From the NCBI GenBank assembly GCA_963756655.1, contig CAVWOQ010000038.1:7178-71177 (forward strand): DNA of 64,000 bases, given 5' to 3'. How positions within the stretch are numbered: position 1 is the first letter of the stretch; every line of letters starts with the position of its first letter. A program made the translations under genes and the position numbers. This document shows, piece after piece, positions 10,289-21,519 of this stretch. Source of the stretch: an uncultured Solirubrobacterales bacterium (GTDB lineage Bacteria; Actinomycetota; Thermoleophilia; Solirubrobacterales; Solirubrobacteraceae). The notes under the pieces were generated by a model. That model saw only the letters and a list, made by a program, of their open reading frames with translations. It ran no database searches and was not told the DNA's origin.

Positions 10289-11299
10289 GTGAGGGACGGC
10301 CAGCAGCCGGAGGTTGTGGTTGTGACGGGGGCTTCAGGTGGCGTCGGGCGCGCGATCGCGCACGCGTTCGCCAAGCGCGGTGCCCACATCGGGCTGGTGG
10401 CGCGCGGTGAGCAGGGCCTCGACGAAGCCCGCCGCGAGGTTGAGCAACTCGGCGGCCAGGCGCTCGTCGTGCCCACCGACGTGGCGCTCGCCGATCAGGT
10501 CGAGGCCGCCGCCGAGGCGGTCGAAGACCGCTTCGGGCCGCTGGACACATGGGTAAACGATGCGATGGCGACCGTGTTCGCGCGGGTCGTCGACATGAAC
10601 GCCGACGAGTTCAAACGCGCGACCGAGGTCACGTATCTGGGGACCGTGTACGGGACGATGGCGGCGCTGAAGCGGATGACCGCGCGCGACCGCGGAACGA
10701 TTGTCCAGGTCGGATCCGCCCTGTCTTACCGAGCGATCCCGCTACAGGCGGCCTACTGCGGTTCGAAGTTCGCGATCCGCGGCTTCACGGACTCGATCCG
10801 CTCCGAGCTGCTGCACGACAAGAGCAGCGTTCACATCACGATGGTGCAGCTCCCGGGCGTCAACACGACCCAGTTCAACTGGTGCCGTTCGAAGCTGCCG
10901 GATCATCCGCAGCCGGTGCCGCCGATCTACCAGCCAGAGATCCCGGCCGAAGCGGCCTACTGGGCCGCGCATCACCGCCGTCGCGAGCTGTGGGTCGGTT
11001 ACAGCGCGGTCGAGGCGATCGTCGGCAACAAGATCGCGCCCGGGTTCGCGGACCGCTATCTGGCACACAAAGCATTCTCGGGGCAGCAGGTGAAGAACAT
11101 GCCGGTGTCGCCAGACCGCCCGGACAACCTGTTCGAGCCCGTCCCGGAGCTCGCCGCGACGCACGGGATCTTCGACGACCGCGCCAAGCGCCGCAGCCCG
11201 CAGCTGTGGGCCAACACGCACCGTGCGCTGCTGGCCGGAGCGGCTGCCGTTGGCGCGGTCGCCGGCGCGGCCGGGTTCGCCGCTGCCCGCGCTCGATGA
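10289..11299 (+). CDS. SDR family oxidoreductase
   Basis: VVTGASGGVG, WVNDA, YCGSK (YxxxK), C-terminal membrane anchor. Confidence 0.92.
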   Translation: MRDGQQPEVVVVTGASGGVGRAIAHAFAKRGAHIGLVARGEQGLDEARREVEQLGGQALVVPTDVALADQVEAAAEAVEDRFGPLDTWVNDAMATVFARVVDMNADEFKRATEVTYLGTVYGTMAALKRMTARDRGTIVQVGSALSYRAIPLQAAYCGSKFAIRGFTDSIRSELLHDKSSVHITMVQLPGVNTTQFNWCRSKLPDHPQPVPPIYQPEIPAEAAYWAAHHRRRELWVGYSAVEAIVGNKIAPGFADRYLAHKAFSGQQVKNMPVSPDRPDNLFEPVPELAATHGIFDDRAKRRSPQLWANTHRALLAGAAAVGAVAGAAGFAAARAR

Positions 11300-13066
11300 A
11301 TACCGCCGGTCCGGCCGCGAACGTCAGCGTGCCGCACATCCTGCGCGAGTACGCGCTGATCGCAGACGGCGAGCGCGGGGCACTGGTTGGTCCGCGCGGC
11401 GACTACACCTGGATGTGCTTTCCGCGCTGGGACTCCGACGCGTGCTTCGCGACGCTGATCGGCGGCGCCGGGACATACGCGGTGACGCCCGACGCGCGCT
11501 TCGTCTGGGGCGGCTACTACGAGCACGGGCTGATCTGGTGCAGCAGGTGGGTGACAGACGGCGGGCTGATCGAGTGCCGCGAGGCGCTGGCGCTGCCCGG
11601 TCACCCGCAGCGGGCCGTGCTCCTGCGCCAGATCCGCGCCGTGACGGGGGCGGCACGCGTCAACGTCGTATTGGATCTGCGGACCGAGTTCGGTGCCAAG
11701 CGCGTCACACATCTGCGGCTCGACGACGGCGGGGTCTGGCACGGTCGGCTCGCCGGCGCGCAGGTCAGTTGGAGCGGGGGCGAGCGCGCAAAGCCGGTCG
11801 ACGAAAATGGCGGCCGCCCGTTGGCGATGACCGTCGCGCTCGAGCAGGGGGAGGTTCACGACCTGGTGCTGGTGCTCGATGCGGGCGCCGATCCCGAGCC
11901 GGTCCCCGAACGCCGCGCGCGCGTGGTCTGCGACCGAGGCGGCGTGGCGCGACTGCGTCCCCGAGCTCGAGTGCGCGGTCGGGCAGCGCGACGCGCGGCA
12001 CTCGTATGCGGTGCTGAAAGGGCTGACCAGCGCCGGCGGCGGGATGGTCGCGGCGGCCACGATGTCGCTGCCTGAGCGCGCGCGGGAGGGCCGCAACTAC
12101 GACTACCGCTACGTCTGGGTGCGCGACCAGTGTCTGACCGGGCAGGCGGTGGCGAAGGCCGGCCCGCATCCACTGCTGGACGACGCGGTCCGGTTCGTGT
12201 CCGAGCGGCTGCTCGACGACGGGCCAGACCTAGTCCCCGCCTACACGACCGACGGCGGCAGCGTCCCCAACCAGCGGAGCCTCGGCCTCCCCGGCTACCC
12301 CGGGGGCACCGACGTCGTCGGCAACTGGGTCAACCGCCAGTTCCAGCTCGACGCGTTCGGCGAGTCGTTGCTGCTGTTCGCGGCGGCCGCCGGCCACGAC
12401 CACCTCGACGCGGACGGGTGGCGCGCGGTCGAGGCGGCGGTCGCGGCAATCGAGCAGCGCTGGCGCGAGCCCGATGCGGGGATCTGGGAGATCGAGCCCG
12501 ACAACTGGACCCACAGCCGGCTGATCTGCGCCGCTGGGCTGCGAGCGATCGCTTCGCACCAGCCGTCTGAACGGGCGGCAGCGTGGTCGTCGCTGGCGGA
12601 CGTGATCGTCGCCGAGACCTCGGCGACCGCGATGCACCCGGAGGGCCGCTGGCAGCGCTCGCCGAGCGACGATCGAGTCGACGCGGCGCTGCTGCTGCCC
12701 GCGATCAACGGCGCGATCGCGTCCGACGATCCCCGTTCGCTGGCGACCTTGCACGCGGTCGAGCGAGAGCTCGCCGATGACGGTTACTGCTACCGGTTCC
12801 GCCCCGACGCCCGCCCGCTGGGCGAGGCGGAGGGCGCGTTCGTGCTGTGCGGCTTCCTGGTCGCGCTGGCCTGGGATCAGCAGGGCGACCAGGTTCGCGC
12901 TGGGCACTGGTTCGAGCGCAACCGTGCGGCATGCGGGCCGGCTGGCTTGATCTCGGAGGAGTTCGATGTCGCCCAACGCCAGCTCCGTGGCAACCTCCCG
13001 CAGGCGTTCGTGCACGCCGCGCTACTCCAATGCGCGATGACGCTGCACGGAGACGGCCGCTCATGA
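11296..13066 (+). CDS. Glycoside hydrolase family 15 (glucoamylase/trehalase-like), frameshift at about 11905
   Basis: YALIADGERGAL, WMCFPRWDS; then MVAAATMSLPE..RNYDYRYVWVRD, DAGIWE, SEEFD..LRGNLPQAFVH in the second frame. Confidence 0.88.
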
Positions 13067-13486: not shown

Positions 13487-14518
13487 GTGTCAATCCCTGT
13501 TCGTCAACGCCGCCACCGCAACCGGCGACTAGCCGTCGCAGGCGCGACGGCGGCCGCCGGCGCGCTGCTCGCCGGCTGCGGCAAGCAGTCGATCCTCTCG
13601 ACCCACAGCCCGCAGGCGCACAACATCATGCTGCTGTGGTGGTGGATGTTGGGAGCCGCGGTGATCGTGTTCACCGGGGCGGTGGTGATGCTGGTGATCG
13701 CGTACTTGCGCCGGGGAACGGCGGGACTGCCGATCTTCGGCCAGCGCGAGAGCGTCGCCGAAGGGATGGTGCTGGTGTTCGGTCTCGCGATCCCGGTGGT
13801 CGCACTGGTGGCGCTGTTCGGGGTCGCGAACGTGTACCTGATCCGCCAGACGTCGCCGCCAGCACCGGCGAGCACGGCGATGACGATCGACGTGATCGGC
13901 CATCAGTGGTGGTGGGAGGTCCGCTACCCGGGGACCGACGCCGTCACCGCGAATGAGATCCACATCCCGGTCGACACGCGTGTCAACGTCGTGGCGACGA
14001 CCGCCGACGTGATCCACAGCTTCTGGGTACCGGCGCTGAACCGCAAGATCGACATGATCCCCGGGCGCCGCAATCGGATTCTGCTATACGCCTCGAGCCC
14101 GGGCGTCTACCGCGGGCAGTGTTCGCAGTTCTGTGGTCTGCAGCACGCGCACATGGCACTGTACGTGTTCGCGCAGCGACCGCCGCGATATCGAGCGTGG
14201 CTGGCCAACATGGCGTCCGCGGCGAGGGTCCCGATGACTGCCGCGGCGCGGGCCGGCGAGCGGCTGTTCATGGGCAGCCAGTGCGCGAGTTGCCACCGGA
14301 TCGCGGGCACCCCGGCGCAGGGCGACGTCGGCCCCGACCTGACGCACGTCGCGACCCGCACGACCCTGGCCGCGCTGACGATCCCCAACACGCCGAATTG
14401 GCTGGCGGCGTGGATCCGCAACCCGCAGGCGATCAAACCCGGCGACCTGATGCCCGACCTGGGGCTGTCGGCGAGCCAGGTCTCATCGCTGGTCGCGTAC
14501 GTGGAGACCTTGAAGTAG
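13487..14518 (+). CDS. ctaC: Cytochrome c oxidase subunit II with fused C-terminal cytochrome c (caa3 type), lipoprotein
   Basis: Lipobox LLAGC; GHQWWWEVRY; DVIHSFWVP; CuA motif CSQFCGLQHAHM; heme c CASCH; MPDL. Confidence 0.93.
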   Translation: MSIPVRQRRHRNRRLAVAGATAAAGALLAGCGKQSILSTHSPQAHNIMLLWWWMLGAAVIVFTGAVVMLVIAYLRRGTAGLPIFGQRESVAEGMVLVFGLAIPVVALVALFGVANVYLIRQTSPPAPASTAMTIDVIGHQWWWEVRYPGTDAVTANEIHIPVDTRVNVVATTADVIHSFWVPALNRKIDMIPGRRNRILLYASSPGVYRGQCSQFCGLQHAHMALYVFAQRPPRYRAWLANMASAARVPMTAAARAGERLFMGSQCASCHRIAGTPAQGDVGPDLTHVATRTTLAALTIPNTPNWLAAWIRNPQAIKPGDLMPDLGLSASQVSSLVAYVETLK

Positions 14519-16420
14519 ATGGCGACGACCATCACCCCGGACGGGCAACGGCACATGGAGCGCCTGGACAGGATCTGGGCCGAGCGCAGGGGACTGGTCG
14601 GCTGGCTGACGACGACTGATCACAAGCGGATCGGGATCCTCTACTTCTTCACCGCGCTGGCGTTCTTCGGCGCCGGCGGCGTCGAGGCGCTGCTGATTCG
14701 CACCCAGCTGATCGGCCCGAACGGACACCTGCTGTCCCCCCAGGCCTACGACGAGGTGTTCACGATGCACGGGATCACGATGATCTTCCTGTTCGTGATC
14801 CCGATGACCACGGGCGCGTTCGGCAATTATCTGATTCCGCTGATGATCGGGGCGCGGGACATGGCCTTCCCGCGCATGAACGCGCTCTCCTACTGGATCT
14901 ATCTGGCCTCGGGGATCTTCATGTATGTCGCGCTCGCCCAGGGCCACGCGCCGAACGCGGGTTGGTTTGACTACGTGCCGCTCGCGTCCAAGCAGTTCGA
15001 TCCGGGCAACAACATCGACTTCTACGGCTGGGGGCTGATCTTCAACGGCATCGCGAGCACGGCGGCGGCGATCAACTTCATCGTCACGATCTTCAAGCTG
15101 CGGGCGCCGGGCATGTCCATCAACCGCATGCCGCTGTTCTGCTTCGCGTTCCTCGCCGTCGCGTTCGCGCTGTTGTTTGCGTTGCCTTCACTGAGCGTCG
15201 CGGCTCTTTTTCTCGAGCTCGACAGGCAGCTCGGTTTTCACTTCTACGACGTCTCGCACGGCGGCGATCCGCTGCTGTGGCAGAACCTGTTCTGGATCTT
15301 CGGACACCCCGAGGTCTACATCATCATCCTGCCGGCGTTCGGGATCGCTACCTCGATCATCCCGGCGTTCGTGCACCGTCGGATGGTGCTGTTCCCGCTG
15401 GTCGCACTGTCGGAGATCCTGGTCGCGTTCCTCGGCTTCGGCGTCTGGCTGCACCACATGTTCACGGTCGGGTTCTCGAGCCTGACGACCGTCTACTTCG
15501 CCGCCGCCAGCCTGATCATCGTGATCCCGTCGGCGATCCAGCTGTTCGCCTGGATCACGACGATCCTGACCGGCACGCCTGACTTTCAGACGCCGCTGCT
15601 GTTCATCGTCGGCTTCATTGTCTACTTCATCATCGGCGGCCTGTCGGGGATCACGCTGGCGGCGATCCCGTTCGACCAGCAGGTCCATGACAGCTACTAC
15701 GTCGTGGCCCACTTCCACTTCGTGATCTTCGGCGCCGCGGTGTTCCCGATCCTCGCCGGGATGTACTTCTGGTTCCCGAAGTTGACGGGACGCATGTATC
15801 ACGAGGGCGTCGGCAAAGTGAGCTTCTGGCTCACGTTCGTCGGTACGTTCGTGACCTTCTTTCCGATGCACATCGTCGGCATCCTCGGGATGCCGCGGCG
15901 CAACTACACCTATCCGCCCGGCCTGGGCTGGGCGCTGCTGAACTTCATCGAATCGATCGGCTCCTACCTCCTCGCCGCCGGGCTGGTGTTGATCGTCCTC
16001 AACCTGTTCGTCAGTCGGTTCCGCGGGCCGGCGGCCGGGAACGACCCGTTCGGCGGTGACACGCTCGAATGGTCGGTTAGCTCGCCGCCGCCGCCATACA
16101 ACTACGCGGTCATCCCGACGGTCACCAGCGCCTATCCGATGTGGGACGAGGAGGACCGCAAGGCCGACAGCCGCAGGCTGGATCGCGGCGAAGGGCTGCT
16201 GGAGCGAGGTCACGAAACGCCGGCGACGACGGTCCAGGACGCGCAACTCGACGAGATCCTCGAGATGCCGCCTTATTCGGCCTGGCCGCCTATGACGGCG
16301 CTGATGCTGTCAGGCATCTTCGCGATGCTGCTAATGCGCCACTACTGGATCGCCGTCGGCTTCGCGGTCGCCGGCGGGTTGGCGCTGCTGGGATGGCACC
16401 GCAAGGGGGTGGCAGTCTGA
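14519..16420 (+). CDS. ctaD: Cytochrome c oxidase subunit I (A family) with C-terminal extra helices
   Basis: TTDHKRIG, FTMHG, DMAFPRMN, FWIFGHPEVY, VWLHHMF, YVVAHFHFV, GMPRR. Confidence 0.96.
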   Translation: MATTITPDGQRHMERLDRIWAERRGLVGWLTTTDHKRIGILYFFTALAFFGAGGVEALLIRTQLIGPNGHLLSPQAYDEVFTMHGITMIFLFVIPMTTGAFGNYLIPLMIGARDMAFPRMNALSYWIYLASGIFMYVALAQGHAPNAGWFDYVPLASKQFDPGNNIDFYGWGLIFNGIASTAAAINFIVTIFKLRAPGMSINRMPLFCFAFLAVAFALLFALPSLSVAALFLELDRQLGFHFYDVSHGGDPLLWQNLFWIFGHPEVYIIILPAFGIATSIIPAFVHRRMVLFPLVALSEILVAFLGFGVWLHHMFTVGFSSLTTVYFAAASLIIVIPSAIQLFAWITTILTGTPDFQTPLLFIVGFIVYFIIGGLSGITLAAIPFDQQVHDSYYVVAHFHFVIFGAAVFPILAGMYFWFPKLTGRMYHEGVGKVSFWLTFVGTFVTFFPMHIVGILGMPRRNYTYPPGLGWALLNFIESIGSYLLAAGLVLIVLNLFVSRFRGPAAGNDPFGGDTLEWSVSSPPPPYNYAVIPTVTSAYPMWDEEDRKADSRRLDRGEGLLERGHETPATTVQDAQLDEILEMPPYSAWPPMTALMLSGIFAMLLMRHYWIAVGFAVAGGLALLGWHRKGVAV

Positions 16421-17043
16421 TGGAGGCCTCGCCGCGGAGCGCCGTCGCCCGCACCAGCCGCAGCGCGGCCGCGGTCGCGCGCGGGAGAGTCGCGCAGCCG
16501 AGCGGCTGGTGGGGAATGGCGCTGTTCCTGTGCGCCGAGGCGTCCCTGTTCGGGATCCTGATCGCGACCTACTTCTACCTCGACTTCGACGCGCGCTCGT
16601 GGCCGCCGGACGGGATCAAGCCGCCAAGCGTGGCACTGCCGCTGGTCGCGACCGCGGTCCTGATTTCGACCACGATCCCACTGCTGCTCGCGGTGCGGGC
16701 GTCCCGTGCCGACCGGCGCTGGCGGGTCGTGGTGCTGGTGATGGTCGCCGTCGTGGTGCAGTGCTGCTACCTGGCGGTCCAGATCCTTCTGTTTCGTCAC
16801 GACCTGCGCCAGTTCTCGCCCAAGGCGACCGCCTACGGGTCGATCTACTTCACGCTGCTGGCCGCCCACCACGCGCACGTCGCGCTCGGGATCCTGCTCG
16901 AACTGGCGGTGCTGTGGCAGGTCGTGCGCAAGGGGCTGACCAACTACTGGCTGACCGGGGTCCGGATCGTGGCTCTGTACTGGTACGTGGTCTGTGGGCT
17001 GGCCGTGTTCGTCGTCCTCACTCAACTGAGCCCGACGCTATGA
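16420..17043 (+). CDS. ctaE: Cytochrome c oxidase subunit III (short, 5-TM type)
   Basis: WGMALFLCAEASLFG, WPPDG, YGSIYFTLLAAHHAHV, LYWYVV. Confidence 0.88.
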   Translation: MEASPRSAVARTSRSAAAVARGRVAQPSGWWGMALFLCAEASLFGILIATYFYLDFDARSWPPDGIKPPSVALPLVATAVLISTTIPLLLAVRASRADRRWRVVVLVMVAVVVQCCYLAVQILLFRHDLRQFSPKATAYGSIYFTLLAAHHAHVALGILLELAVLWQVVRKGLTNYWLTGVRIVALYWYVVCGLAVFVVLTQLSPTL

Positions 17044-17447
17044 CCCATAAGCTGCTGCCCTCCAACACGCTGCTGTGGTTCGGGGTGCTCGGCGGCGCCG
17101 CCGCGTGGGCGACGCAGTTCCTGGCCAACCTGTTCTTCACCTTCGCCCAGTGCGACCAGCCGGTCCAGCGGTGGATGCTGCCGGTCCACAGCTGGGAGAT
17201 CGGCCTCTCCGTGCTCGCGCTCGCCGTCGGCCTGAGCGCGACCGCGGTCTCGCTGACGATCTTCGTCCGTACCGGCCGCGTCGACGATGTCTCGGCCAAG
17301 GAACGCGAGGGCAGGGGCACGCAGCCACCGCTAGGCCGGGTCCACTTCCTGGCGATGGTCGGCCTGCTGGTGAATTTCCTCGCGCTGGCGATCATCGCCA
17401 TGACCGGCGTCGGCGCGCCCCTGCTCCCGGTCTGCCAGCAGTCATGA
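17040..17447 (+). CDS. Hypothetical membrane protein within the oxidase operon
   Basis: LLWFGVLGGAAAW..QF; three hydrophobic segments; overlapping start/stop on both sides. Confidence 0.65.
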   Translation: MTHKLLPSNTLLWFGVLGGAAAWATQFLANLFFTFAQCDQPVQRWMLPVHSWEIGLSVLALAVGLSATAVSLTIFVRTGRVDDVSAKEREGRGTQPPLGRVHFLAMVGLLVNFLALAIIAMTGVGAPLLPVCQQS

Positions 17448-18237
17448 GCCGGGTGCGGGTCGCAGCGTTGACGGTCGCGGTGATGCTGCTCGGGTCGGTC
17501 CCGATCGCCGAAGCACAGCCACAATCCGGGATCGTCCGCCCGACGACGGAGCCGCCGACGCCGAGCGTCGCGCTCGGCGCCGAGCTGTTCGCCGGAAACT
17601 GCGCGAGCTGTCACGGGATCGCCGGCTCGGGCATCTCGACGCCGCGGCCGGGCGGCGGAAACATCGTCGGCGCCGGACCGTCGCTGCACGGCGTCGGCGC
17701 GCTGGCCGCGGACTTCTACCTGCGACGCGGCTACATGCCGCTGTCGAGCATCCACGATCAGCCGTGGGACGACGCCGTTCAGTTCTCCAACAAGGAGATC
17801 AGCTCACTGACCGAGTATGTCGCCTCGCTGGGGAAGGGCCCGGCGATCCCGCGACCCAGAATCCGGGCGCCGGCAAGATCTCCGACGGACAGCAGCTGTT
17901 CAGCATGCACTGCGCCGGCTGTCATCAGATCGATGCCCGTGGCGGCTTTGTCACCGGTGCGCGGGTTCCGCCGCTGCAGAGCGTGCCGGCAACGCAGATA
18001 GCCGAGGCGGTGCGGATCGGGCCGTATCTGATGCCGCGCTTCTCGACCACGCAGATCTCGAACTCGCAGTTGAACTCAATCGTCAAGTACGTGCTGAGCA
18101 CGAATCACGTCGACAACGCCGGCGGTTGGGGGATTGGAAACATCGGCCCGATTCCGGAGGGTCTGGTCGCGTGGTGGATCGCGGCGCCGCTGCTGATCTT
18201 GTCGTGTCGGATGGTGGGGCGGAGGAGGCATAGATGA
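17444..18237 (+). CDS. qcrC: Diheme cytochrome c subunit of the bc complex (frameshift at about 17868)
   Basis: CASCH, AADFYLRRGYMP, then CAGCH, EAVRIGPYLMPRF, GGWGIGNIGPIPEGLVAW. Confidence 0.85.
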
Positions 18238-19244
18238 AGGGCTGGCAATGGTTTGTGGCACTCCTGGCCGCCTGGTGGGAGCGGCTCCGGGGAAAGGATC
18301 CGGAGCTCGCCTCGACGGTTGACGGAGAGCAAGGCCAGCGGAGGATCGTTCCGGCCGGAACGCCGCAACGGGCGGCCGAGAACGTGGTTCTCGCACTGTT
18401 CGCGATCGCGGCCCTGCTCGCGCTCGGCTTCGTGGTCGTGTACGCCGAGTTCAGCGCCACCGCGGTGCCGAACGAGCTGCTGGGGCTGTGCCTCGGCCTA
18501 TCGCTCGTGTTCATCGGCGCGGCGCTGACGGTGGTCGCAAAGCGGCTCGTGGTGACCGAGGAGCTCGAGGATGACTATCCCGAGGAGCATCCGCAGCAGC
18601 AGCAGGAGATCGCCGAGATCGTGCACGAGAGCGGCAGCCGGATCACGCGCAAGCGGCTGCTGCTCGGAGCCGGCGCGGCGACCGGCGGCGCGCTCGGGCT
18701 GGCAGCGCTGACTCCTGTGCTGTCGCTGGGTCCTGTCTGGGACACGCGGCCGCTGGACGAAACTCCGTGGCGCCGAGGGGTCCGGGTCGTCGACGTCGAC
18801 GGCGTGCCGCTGAAGGCCGCCGAGATCGAGCAGCAGACCTTTTACACGGGCTTCCCGGAGGGAGCGAACTTCGAAGACATCGCTTCACCGCTGGTGATCA
18901 TCCGGCTCGACCCCAGCAAGCTCGAGCTGCCCGCCGGGCGTGCCGACTGGGCGCCAAACGGGATCCTCGCCTACTCGAAGATCTGCACACACGCCGGCTG
19001 CGCGATCGCGCTTTATCGCAAGCCGACGTTCCCGGTGCTCGAGCCCAACAACGCGCTCGTCTGCCCGTGCCATTACTCGACCTTCGATCCGTACACGGGC
19101 GGAACGGTTACCTACGGTCCGGCCGGTCGCCCGCTGCCGCAGCTGCCGCTGATGATCGATGCCGATGGCTACCTGCGGGCGGCGGGGAACTTCTCGGCCC
19201 GGGTGGGGCCGAGCTGGTGGGCCGTGAGAGAGCGACCGGAGTGA
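18234..19244 (+). CDS. qcrA: Rieske iron-sulfur subunit
   Basis: YSKICTHAGC, CPCHYSTFD, GPAGRPLPQLP; internal ITRKRLL segment. Confidence 0.93.
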   Translation: MKGWQWFVALLAAWWERLRGKDPELASTVDGEQGQRRIVPAGTPQRAAENVVLALFAIAALLALGFVVVYAEFSATAVPNELLGLCLGLSLVFIGAALTVVAKRLVVTEELEDDYPEEHPQQQQEIAEIVHESGSRITRKRLLLGAGAATGGALGLAALTPVLSLGPVWDTRPLDETPWRRGVRVVDVDGVPLKAAEIEQQTFYTGFPEGANFEDIASPLVIIRLDPSKLELPAGRADWAPNGILAYSKICTHAGCAIALYRKPTFPVLEPNNALVCPCHYSTFDPYTGGTVTYGPAGRPLPQLPLMIDADGYLRAAGNFSARVGPSWWAVRERPE

Positions 19245-20638
19245 GCAACGAGTCGGCAGACCGTGTGCTCGATCCGGTCCGGTTCATCGACGAGCGGACC
19301 GCCGCCGCGCCGCAGATGCGTAAGTTCATGCGCTACCTGTTCCCTGACCACTGGTCGTTCCTGCTCGGCGAGGTGGCGCTGTATGCGTTCCTGGTCCTGA
19401 TTGCGACCGGGATCTACTTGGCGCTGTTCTACGACCCGAGCACCGCACAGACCGTCTACCACGGCCCGTACGCGCCACTCGACGGACAGTCGATGAGCAT
19501 GGCGTACGAGTCCGTGCTGGATCTTTCGCTGGCGACCAAGGCCGGGCTTCTGATCCGGCAGACGCATCACTGGGCCGCCGACGTGTTCATGGTCGCGATC
19601 GTCTTGCACCTGATGCGCGTGTTCTTCACGGGCGCGTTTCGCAAGCCCCGTGAATTGACCTGGCTGGTCGGGCTGCTGCTGCTGTTCACCGCGCTGTTGG
19701 AGGGCTTTCTCGGCTATTCGCTGGTCGACGATCTGCTCTCTGGCATGGGGCTCGCGATCGGCTACGGCGTCGGTCTATCAATTCCGGTGATCGGTGGCCC
19801 GATGACGCTCGCGATCTTCGGGGCGCCGTTTCCGGGCAAGCCCGACTTCTTCTCGCGGATGTACATCGCACACGTGTTCCTGCTCCCGGCTCTGCTCGCG
19901 ACGTTGATCGGGATCCATCTGGCGCTGATCATGGCCCGCCACCACACGCAGTTTCGGGAGAGCAAGCGGACGACCGAGCGACGGATCGTCGGTGTGCCGT
20001 TGTTTCCAGGCCAGGCGCCACGCTCGCTGGCGCTGATGTTCTTCACCGCCGGCCTGTTGTTCCTGCTTGGTGGGCTGGTGCAGATCAACCCGATCTGGCA
20101 GTGGGGGCCGTTCCACACGTATCTAGGGACTAACGGGGCACAGCCCGACTGGTATCTGGGATGGCTGATCGGCGCGCTACGACTGATGCCGAGCTTCGAC
20201 GTCACGATCGGCCACTTCACGCTGGTGCCTAACCCGTTCTGGGGCGGCGCCCTATTCCCGCTGTTCGTGCTCGCCGTGCTGGCGAGTTTTCCGTGGGTCG
20301 AGCGCCGTCTGAGCGGCGACCGCGGGGTCCACAACATCGCCGATCGCCCGCGCGATGCGCCGCTCCGGACCGCGTTCGGGGTCGCGTTCCTGAGCTGGGT
20401 GTTTCTGGTGTTCGTGTTCGGCGCCGCAGATCGCATGTTCGTGCTGTTCGGGCTCAGCTACAACACGCAGTTGTACGTCTTCCGGATCGGCATCTGGGTC
20501 GTGCCGTTCGTCCTGTTCTTCCTCACCCGCCGGATCTGTCGTGAGCTGCTCGCGGCCGAAGCGGTCGACGCGGTCCGTCGACAGGCCGAGCTCGAAGGAG
20601 CGGCGCACGAGCGCTCGCTGGCGGCGCACGGCAGATGA
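19241..20638 (+). CDS. qcrB: Cytochrome b subunit of the bc complex
   Basis: FPDHWSFLLGEVALY, IRQTHHWAA..LHLMRVFFTGAFRKPRE, HVFLLP..IHL, QPDWY. Confidence 0.95.
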   Translation: MSNESADRVLDPVRFIDERTAAAPQMRKFMRYLFPDHWSFLLGEVALYAFLVLIATGIYLALFYDPSTAQTVYHGPYAPLDGQSMSMAYESVLDLSLATKAGLLIRQTHHWAADVFMVAIVLHLMRVFFTGAFRKPRELTWLVGLLLLFTALLEGFLGYSLVDDLLSGMGLAIGYGVGLSIPVIGGPMTLAIFGAPFPGKPDFFSRMYIAHVFLLPALLATLIGIHLALIMARHHTQFRESKRTTERRIVGVPLFPGQAPRSLALMFFTAGLLFLLGGLVQINPIWQWGPFHTYLGTNGAQPDWYLGWLIGALRLMPSFDVTIGHFTLVPNPFWGGALFPLFVLAVLASFPWVERRLSGDRGVHNIADRPRDAPLRTAFGVAFLSWVFLVFVFGAADRMFVLFGLSYNTQLYVFRIGIWVVPFVLFFLTRRICRELLAAEAVDAVRRQAELEGAAHERSLAAHGR

Positions 20639-21519
20639 CCCACCTGGCCGAGTTCATACCGCCGCTTGGCGCAACGTTCCTTTACCTGCTTCTGTACCGC
20701 CGGCGGATGGCGACGCTCGCCGCCGAAGGCCGACCGGTCGCGCCCTGGCGAGTGGCCTCGTTCGTATGTGGCGTCGTGATGGTCGCTGCGGTACAGGTGG
20801 GGCCGTTGGACGGGCTGGCCGACACGCTGCTCGTCGCCCACATGATCCAGCACATCGTGATCGGCGACCTGGCGTCGCTGCTGATCGTGCTGGGGCTGAC
20901 CGGTCCGGTGCTCGCGCCGCTCATGCACACGAAGGCTTCGCGAGCGATGCGACGTCTGTCGCACCCGCTGGTCGCACTCACGCTGTGGGCGATTGATCTA
21001 TATGCCTGGCATCTGCCGCTCTTCTACCAGCTGGCGATCGAGCACGACCTAGTGCACGCCCTTGAGCACGCGTGCCTGCTGTGGTTCGGCTGCCTGCTGT
21101 GGCTGGCGCTAGTCGGCCCCCTCCCGAAACCCAGCTGGTTTTTGGGCTGGTGGAGCCTGGGTTATGTGATCCTGGTCCGGTTCGTCGGCGCCGTGCTCGC
21201 GAACGCACTGATCTGGGCCCAGACCGTCTTCTATCCGGTCTACCGCGCGAGCGACGCCGCGCGGGGACTGAGTCCGCTGTCGGACCAGAATCTGGCCGGC
21301 GGGGTGATGATGGTCGAGCAGGTGCTGCTGACGACGGCGCTGCTGGTCTGGCTGCTGGCCCGTCTGCTGCGCCAGGACGAGGACCGCCAGGGGCTGCTGG
21401 ATCTCGCAGCGAGTCGTGGCTTGCAACTCGACGAGGAACGCGCCGCCCGAGCCGCGCGGGCCGGTGCGACGGCCCGGATGCGCGAGCGGCTGCAGAGCGG
21501 TCCGACCGGACGTCTGTGA
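20635..21519 (+). CDS. ctaG: Cytochrome c oxidase assembly protein CtaG (caa3 type)
   Basis: AHMIQH, YAWHLP, HALEH, DQNLAGGVM. Confidence 0.85.
   Translation: MTHLAEFIPPLGATFLYLLLYRRRMATLAAEGRPVAPWRVASFVCGVVMVAAVQVGPLDGLADTLLVAHMIQHIVIGDLASLLIVLGLTGPVLAPLMHTKASRAMRRLSHPLVALTLWAIDLYAWHLPLFYQLAIEHDLVHALEHACLLWFGCLLWLALVGPLPKPSWFLGWWSLGYVILVRFVGAVLANALIWAQTVFYPVYRASDAARGLSPLSDQNLAGGVMMVEQVLLTTALLVWLLARLLRQDEDRQGLLDLAASRGLQLDEERAARAARAGATARMRERLQSGPTGRL

Follow-up and report, generated by a model that had tools for sequence, protein, structure and literature searches.

A putative accessory cytochrome c oxidase of a soil actinobacterium with glutamine in place of the K-channel lysine

The window analysed here, a stretch of 64,000 nucleotides (contig CAVWOQ010000038.1 of assembly GCA_963756655.1, positions 7,178 to 71,177), comes from an uncultured Solirubrobacterales bacterium and carries a ctaD-like open reading frame (ORF) of this soil actinobacterium that encodes a haem-copper oxidase subunit I (633 residues, 14519–16420, + strand). 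A K-channel lysine accompanied by Thr, Ser and Tyr is part of the definition of A-type oxidases (Sousa et al. 2011, PMC3084760), and the channel serves two reductive steps (PMC7196763). In the window protein, the position of this lysine (K362/K354; Lys362 in Rhodobacter sphaeroides numbering) is held by a glutamine, Gln341, while Tyr267, Thr278 and Ser338 are present. Our data suggest, with a confidence only somewhat better than even, that the protein belongs to a working, accessory A-family (caa3-like) cytochrome c oxidase from a large clade with a rebuilt form of the classical K-pathway that lacks both charged residues, the lysine of subunit I and a glutamate of subunit II.

The replacement lies in helix VIII (IIVIPSAIQLFAW, 15515–15553, + strand), where a preliminary description of the sequence had correctly read both Gln for Lys and Ser for Thr: Gln341 is encoded by CAG at 15539–15541, and Ser338, the equivalent of T359, by TCG at 15530–15532. 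The Thr-to-Ser change is unremarkable and is found also in 7/73 Lys-type sequences. Gln341 falls 28 residues past the second CuB histidine of subunit I, the same spacing that separates Lys362 from H334 in the R. sphaeroides enzyme. In an alignment of 132 sequences (68 with Lys and 36 with Gln), it sits in the Lys column itself, which disposes of the possibility that a lysine would align at the equivalent position.

The glutamine is not an artefact of the assembly. It occurs in 121/121 homologues at ≥79% identity (motif IPS[AG][IV]Q[LI]F[AS]W), whose source names point to Solirubrobacteraceae, and is conserved in more than 180 homologues overall. The codon CAG recurs in 12/12 further loci, comprising 11 orthologues from other Thermoleophilia genomes (61–85% identity) and one relative at 48% identity. 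Contigs from soil-metagenome runs X1 and X2 (both from study P1) show 0 differences across the Gln341 codon, and a contig of run X5 (study P2) spans the codon with 2 differences in 312 bases, none of the differences listed falling at 15539–15541. A base-call error (CAG for AAG), which had been raised as an alternative, is ruled out by this conservation among homologues together with the orthologue codons and the metagenome contigs. We also considered RNA run X13 as evidence of expression; it covers parts of subunit I only at 90–95% identity, so these matches derive from relatives and were not counted as expression of the gene.

The other charged residue of the pathway is missing from the partner subunit. 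Subunit II is encoded by a ctaC-like gene (13487–14518, + strand; TIGR02866 CoxB 151.8 bits against a cut-off of 147.7; PF00116 and PF00034) and joins a CuA domain to a fused C-terminal cytochrome c of the caa3 type, with a CASCH haem c domain at its C-terminus. At the start of its second transmembrane helix (AEGMVLVFGLAIP, 13757–13795, + strand), the position of the canonical K-pathway entrance Glu (E101 in R. sphaeroides, E78 in Paracoccus denitrificans) is Val/Leu. Among 121 subunit II homologues this column holds Leu in 105, Val in 15 and Ile in 1; in other aligned orthologues it is likewise hydrophobic or at least not Glu, with Ile in both rhizobial forms. The genome's own A1 and A2 subunits II keep the entrance Glu ('RLEVVWT'). 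Four residues upstream of the canonical position, one turn nearer the cytoplasm, lies a semi-conserved Glu (Glu in 97, Gln in 23 and Arg in 1 of the 121 homologues). We rejected the idea that the glutamate had merely moved by one turn since the upstream Glu is not conserved in other orthologues; being variable there, it can make at most a local contribution. With the subunit I lysine and the subunit II glutamate both replaced, both charged residues of the K-pathway are gone.

What the pathway retains is its hydroxyls: Tyr267, Thr278 (equivalent to S299; 15350–15352, + strand), which is the lower K-pathway hydroxyl, Ser338 (T359) and Ser331 (T352). Across 59 Gln-type sequences, Tyr is found in 55/57, and Ser or Thr in 49/57 at the S299 position (Thr in 100% of the narrow clade), 51/59 at the T359 position and 57/59 at the T352 position. 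The D-channel is far more variable in Gln-type sequences, with N121 kept in 27/54, N139 in 34/54 and E286 in 39/57, and with Glu in half at N207. In five relatives (loci L031, L037, L039, L041 and L019), Gln and Ser are retained, but the E286 position is W, L or I. Having no terminus to their D-channel, such relatives would have to rely on the sub-haem route like B-family oxidases, and because they nonetheless keep Gln and Ser, the Gln-containing route would appear to conduct protons. This is our main argument for a working pathway. More broadly, in the Gln-type oxidases of other Actinomycetota (loci L029–L048) the E286 position is taken by D, W, L, I or V, and the A2 'YS' motif is absent. Such proteins are built on an A-family scaffold that lacks both the classical D-channel terminus and the K-channel Lys.

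A candidate new carboxylate, Glu299, lies in helix VII (15413–15415, + strand; position 320 in R. sphaeroides, M277 in the bovine enzyme), 14 residues ahead of the CuB ligand H313. It is 100% conserved in the narrow clade, versus M, T, I or S in Lys-type sequences (Glu in 0/73), and is encoded by GAG in 11/12 Thermoleophilia genes (the window's own and 10/11 orthologues). A second supported actinobacterial sub-clade also has it, with Thr or Asn in neighbouring lineages. Glu299 adjoins the position equivalent to CcoN H247 of cbb3 oxidases, a helix VII residue of the K^C-channel (PMC8239418 supplement). Since it precedes H313 by ~3.9 turns, it should face the same pore ~20 Å lower, at lower K-pathway depth; helix periodicity and the analogy with cbb3 would thus put it on the CuB-histidine face of helix VII. 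A comparison of the narrow clade with Lys-type sequences revealed no relocated nearby lysine among the clade-specific residues.

The remaining catalytic parts of subunit I are intact, and here too the preliminary description, which had listed the metal ligands, HPEVY and the D-channel Asp, holds up. The six His ligands of haem a, haem a3 and CuB (H84, H263, H312, H313, H398 and H400) all occupy invariant columns in alignment A1, and the Arg pair R460/R461 is present. HPEVY (15305–15319, + strand) contains the CuB ligand H263, E265 (equivalent to E286) and the cross-link Tyr267 (Y288), with H263, P264, V266 and Y267 invariant in the same alignment. The longer motif WIFGHPEVY (residues 259–267) has the A1 form, not the 'YSHP' of A2 enzymes, and a Tyr–His cross-link is predicted from it. 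The D-channel is that of an A1 oxidase, with entrance residues D114 and N121 (D132 and N139) within RDMAFPRMN (14858–14881, + strand) and further N103 (N121), N186 (N207) and S180 (S201); its presence together with E265 sets the protein outside the B family. Nitric oxide reductase or other chemistry is ruled out, since neither the Tyr nor any of the three CuB histidines has been lost (criteria in PMC11214002). Subunit I is under strong purifying selection.

In the mechanism we propose, protons for the reductive half of the cycle would still enter under haem a3, passing along a neutral hydrogen-bonded chain of waters, Gln341, Ser338, Thr278 and Tyr267 much as in the lysine-free B- and C-family enzymes. 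Glu299 may serve as an internal or entrance proton donor, replacing the pair of Lys and subunit II Glu, while pumped protons and those of the oxidative phase would travel through the intact D-channel. Electrons would pass from quinol through the bcc complex, the cytochrome c domain and CuA to O2, in a branch that runs beside the housekeeping A1 and A2 oxidases. A bolder version of this proposal, tentative and more apt to fail than to hold, is that the Gln clade represents a fourth kind of haem-copper proton-input channel, built lysine-free on an A-family scaffold, in whose actinobacterial half Glu299, placed like the cbb3 K^C histidine, supplants both Lys362 and subunit II Glu101.

Phylogeny bears out the suggestion that the glutamine marks a clade. 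All Gln sequences fell into one clade with support of 1.0 and no Lys (31 Gln among 42 members in a first tree); in an enlarged tree to which genome-derived sequences were added, this clade comprised 64 sequences, 54 with Gln and 0 with Lys, again with support of 1.0. The few non-Gln members carry A, V, L, I, H or G at the Lys position. In a search of 1.84 billion representatives, the nearest other clusters were mostly subunit I+III fusions of 830–860 residues that also have Gln, from sources including Pseudomonas mendocina-group strains, Martelella, Hoeflea, Actinomycetota metagenome-assembled genomes and others. The Gln class resides in the chromosomes of Pseudomonas mendocina-group strains, and the fused type is common on plasmids of Ensifer/Sinorhizobium, Agrobacterium, Aminobacter, Sphingobium and Tistrella, with 194 plasmid records covering at least 80% of the query; several of these plasmids exceed 1 Mb, and we read them as megaplasmids. 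Gene order on the rhizobial plasmids is coxB, ctaD(I+III), a small ORF, CtaG and cytochrome c. Within Thermoleophilia the Gln-type operon is patchy, occurring in 12/201 genomes (the window's own included). The tally for Actinomycetota (45/401 genomes) takes in eight unpublished genomes (G201, G217, G312, G338, G362, G410, G511 and G561), on which no sequence-level claim rests.

The genome carries four COX1 paralogues: a canonical A1, an A2, the Gln-type and a hydrophobic lysine-less form. This fourth paralogue groups apart, in a branch whose members have hydrophobic residues instead of the Lys; we take this branch to be of the sort reported from Acidithiobacillus and its relatives. The paralogue lies on contig C29 of the same genome (G000; locus L004, 1198–2847, − strand), has Ile at the Lys362 position (LPTGFIFLCAM), and keeps HPEVY, but D132 is replaced by Arg and N139 by Glu (RRMAFPRIES). 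A break in its frame near the C-terminus is probably an indel error of the assembly.

Structural comparison places the window protein close to known A-type enzymes. Subunit I has 12 core helices followed by two C-terminal helices (PF00115 483.5 bits) and scores just below the cut-off of TIGR02891 CtaD_CoxA (667.9 versus 670.75 bits). Its AF2 (AlphaFold2) model is confident in fold (pLDDT 92.9), with a best Foldseek match over 614 columns to 2yev_A, the caa3 I+III fusion of Thermus thermophilus; Escherichia coli bo3 also matches over >600 columns. Residues 9–626 align to residues 7–623 of an 830-residue I+III fusion from the Gln-type search. Since the match to the 2YEV I+III protein extends over >600 columns, the two C-terminal helices correspond to the start of subunit III; unlike 2YEV, the window protein has only these first two subunit III helices and not the whole subunit, subunit III being a separate 5-helix protein. 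The canonical A1 aa3/caa3 oxidases (R. sphaeroides 1M56/2GSM, P. denitrificans 1AR1, T. thermophilus caa3 2YEV and Bacillus subtilis aa3-600 6KOB) share the fold (Foldseek probability 1.0, 34–42% identity in the aligned part; phmmer E 1e-112 to 1e-136). Common to them and the window enzyme are the six His, the HPEVY Tyr, the D-channel with E286 and a CuA subunit II, and the cytochrome c fusion on subunit II is as in caa3. The window enzyme differs from them by Gln for Lys362, a hydrophobic residue for subunit II Glu101 and the extra helix VII Glu, and its sub-clade also by Gln for the CuA-loop Glu.

Lysine-less A-family oxidases have been catalogued before (Degli Esposti et al. 2020, 2021; PMC8239418). 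The 'modified K-channel' enzymes among them, from acidophilic iron oxidizers and relatives (CoxA of the Acidithiobacillus rus operon, Thioclava and Acidithrix; PMC8239418), also lack the Lys and the subunit II Glu and keep the D-channel, and the change at COX2 E78 is one that the window enzyme shares. However, these iron-oxidizer forms have I, L, V, M, F or A at the Lys (K354) position and belong to another branch, whereas the window clade has a polar Gln and keeps its hydroxyls. The K-channel variant table of PMC8239418 holds no Gln entry at the Lys position, and the literature we searched (bll4479-4481 and K362Q included) yielded neither a description nor a characterized member of the Gln class. 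The likeness to B-family ba3 (T. thermophilus) and C-family cbb3 oxidases (K^C residues CcoN S240, S244, H247 and Y255, helix VII) is one of working principle only: both have a lysine-free input under haem a3 that uses Ser/Thr/Tyr, water and, in cbb3, helix VII residues. Unlike either, the window enzyme has a D-channel, E286, the A-type Tyr position and A-type sequence similarity.

Two further systems resemble the operon rather than the channel. The actinobacterial bcc-aa3 supercomplex (Mycobacterium smegmatis 6ADQ/6HWH, Corynebacterium glutamicum 7Q21) has dihaem QcrC, QcrA and QcrB of the same type and a 5-helix CtaE adjoining qcrCAB, but the window subunit II has its own haem c, the genes all stand in one operon and the K-pathway is lysine-free. 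Scores against the NCBIfam exception models for actinobacterial aa3 fall short (CtaD NF050116, 524.9 of 880; CtaC NF050117, 105.4 of 250; CtaE NF050119, 39.7 of 190). The 'COX operon type a / a-II' (Degli Esposti et al. 2014, PMC4013037), which includes COX1-3 fusions, a COX1 of 630–670 residues with a C-terminal extension, a 5-helix COX3 and caa3_CtaG, matches the window operon in gene-cluster architecture and subunit I length class. The K-channel of this type goes unmentioned in PMC4013037, and Supplementary Table S1 of a later Degli Esposti paper lists a and a-II as having a K-channel.

The genes around ctaD suggest what the oxidase is part of. The 11 orthologous loci share the gene order ctaC(cyt c)-ctaD-ctaE-orf135-qcrC-qcrA-qcrB (orf135 had no match in one, and the qcrB match failed in two), and the oxidase is accompanied by its own QcrCAB and a CtaG copper chaperone in 11/11 of them. 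Following ctaD on the + strand are ctaE (16420–17043), for a short subunit III of ~207 residues and the 5-helix type (PF00510 48.3 bits; best NCBIfam matches QoxC/CyoC), which is syntenic in 11/11 orthologous loci, and qcrC (17443–18237), for a dihaem cytochrome c. In the assembly, two single-base insertions, near 17851 and 17858, divide qcrC between two frames. Contigs of runs X1, X2 and X5 have one base fewer at each of these positions, which restores a single ORF, and qcrC is one ORF in the closest relative (L008). We thus rejected a pseudogene reading of qcrC, three metagenome runs being without the two extra bases, and treat these as indel errors of the assembly. Next come qcrA (18234–19244, + strand; actinobacterial-type Rieske subunit, NF050121 211.6 bits), single copy in the genome; qcrB (19241–20638, + strand, start approximate; actinobacterial-type cytochrome b, NF050120 510.4 bits versus a cut-off of 500); and a caa3-type CtaG, the CuB insertion factor (20635–21519, + strand), which has tblastn paralogues beside other oxidases and rhizobial versions annotated 'cytochrome c oxidase assembly protein'.

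The genome's only qcrA, only qcrC and only full-length actinobacterial-type qcrB are all in this operon. Relatives without the Gln-type oxidase also lack a full-length, above-cut-off QcrB and carry a b6-like cytochrome b; the nearest to an exception is G017, which has no such oxidase and shows a frame-broken, below-cut-off QcrB-like match beside a different oxidase gene. In other Actinomycetota lineages, an oxidase cluster recurs with qcrC/qcrA nearby and CtaG in between, in varying order. Because the operon holds its own QcrCAB, is patchily distributed and never supplies the sole oxidase in the genomes checked, it would form an accessory, self-contained quinol-to-O2 branch, and the window oxidase is apparently a spare but working one. 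As a separate observation, a short b6-like cytochrome b was found in all Solirubrobacteraceae genomes checked (G000 C29:10679-11284; L021, L024–L028), and is presumably part of a housekeeping bc complex.

The preliminary description had offered two ideas about function, an altered proton route or a specialized activity such as low-rate O2 or peroxide scavenging. The first gains from the invariant, clade-defining Gln, the loss of both charges, the retained hydroxyls and Glu299; for the second we found no support. In favour of a slow enzyme specialized for O2 or peroxide scavenging, and not for energy conservation, the Gln-type oxidase is an additional paralogue in a genome that already has canonical A1 and A2 enzymes, it occurs patchily among Thermoleophilia, and K362M mutants reportedly keep peroxidase activity. 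Yet a dedicated bcc complex, subunit III, CtaG and the complete pump apparatus (D-channel, E265 and R460/R461) are conserved together, the operon contains no peroxide-related genes, and beyond the Lys loss itself the sequence gives no sign of low turnover, making scavenging quite unlikely. The full D-channel with E265, the ligands, the purifying selection and the accompanying QcrCAB and CtaG instead give the operon the look of an energy-conserving respiratory branch. Still further from probable, with a chance close to nil, is a sequencing error or decaying pseudogene: the assembly does have indel errors (in qcrC, and probably in the C29 COX1 paralogue and a GH15 gene), but the subunit I ORF is intact, the CAG is identical in contigs of two runs with no change at it among the differences listed for a third from another study, and Gln is conserved far beyond this genome.

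A more serious competitor, though still an improbable one, is a dead K-pathway, in which all substrate and pumped protons would use the intact D-channel and Gln and the hydroxyls would be kept for packing only. The loss of both ionizable residues fits this, as does the complete D-channel with E265 in the window protein, and D-channel-only supply has been argued for Acidithiobacillus-type COX1 (Degli Esposti et al., bioRxiv 10.1101/2020.03.01.968255). However, lineages in which the pathway was apparently abandoned (the fourth paralogue's clade) have Ile, Met or Leu for Lys and often Phe for Thr359, whereas the Gln clade has an invariant polar Gln and retains Ser/Thr/Tyr. Clade members without any E286-type residue also still keep Gln and the hydroxyls, and in model enzymes the D-channel does not take over from the K-channel during the reductive phase (PMC7196763).

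Our preferred reading of a rebuilt, working pathway has its own difficulties. The activity of the clade's members is a prediction. Removal of the Lys nearly abolishes turnover in model A-type enzymes, and Gln can neither carry a proton nor supply the positive charge proposed to aid electron transfer to the binuclear centre. In each of the 17 genomes checked, the Gln-type enzyme is accompanied by at least one other haem-copper oxidase, so that a weak activity would be tolerated. Glu299 is missing from the fused (rhizobial) half of the clade, which has extra glutamates around the D-channel instead, and it therefore cannot be a general solution; its placement relative to Gln341 comes from helix periodicity and the cbb3 analogy. 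Finally, the consensus is that K-channel proton delivery needs K362 (PMC10341450).

The Gln clade offers a natural test of what the K-channel lysine is for, and its glutamine is the hallmark of a large, unstudied oxidase branch. The role of Lys362 has been debated since the 1990s, with proposals that it shuttles protons, gates the channel or provides a mobile positive charge assisting reduction of the binuclear centre, and to our knowledge the evidence is confined to mutants with lost function in a few model enzymes. That a large natural clade has an invariant Gln and no subunit II Glu but retains everything else suggests that an alternative which works has evolved, or that the pathway has become dispensable. 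Should turnover and pumping of these enzymes prove normal, the lysine would not be generally needed in A-type oxidases, whether as an indispensable proton carrier or as a charge-compensating 'dielectric' element. Since the Gln class is present in culturable Ensifer, Sinorhizobium and Pseudomonas mendocina-group strains, the question is directly testable. For soil Actinomycetota, the operon would define an accessory, self-contained bcc-oxidase respiratory branch.

The CuA loop of subunit II (CSQFCGLQHAHM, 14120–14155, + strand) has a change of its own. The Cys, Cys, His and Met ligands are present, and Gln replaces the Glu that also binds Mg/Mn. The preliminary description's reading of CSQFC instead of CxExC is thus real, but limited to a sub-clade: C[SA]Q[FY]C is found in 121/121 of the nearest subunit II homologues, and more distant orthologues have CAEFC, CDEFC or CAEYC. 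We considered this Gln as part of the Lys-to-Gln adaptation and rejected it as a general feature because the distant orthologues retain Glu, which sets it outside that syndrome; judged from the distribution of motifs, it is a younger change at the CuA/Mg site, specific to the Solirubrobacteraceae sub-clade. The Mg/Mn site also varies elsewhere in the clade, subunit I H390 (of H390-D391, 15686–15691) being Thr in most orthologues, and the window and its closest relative combine His in subunit I with Gln in subunit II at this site.

Between ctaE and qcrC, in the position of subunit IV, lies a membrane ORF of 135 residues (17040–17447, + strand) that recurs in 10/11 orthologous loci at 29–64% identity. 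It had no match in orthologous locus L018 and no family assignment; its product probably resembles subunit IV or acts as a bridging subunit. Directly upstream of the operon is a GH15 trehalase-like gene (10549–13066), which extends over two overlapping frames (10549–12075 and 11879–13066), probably owing to an assembly indel.

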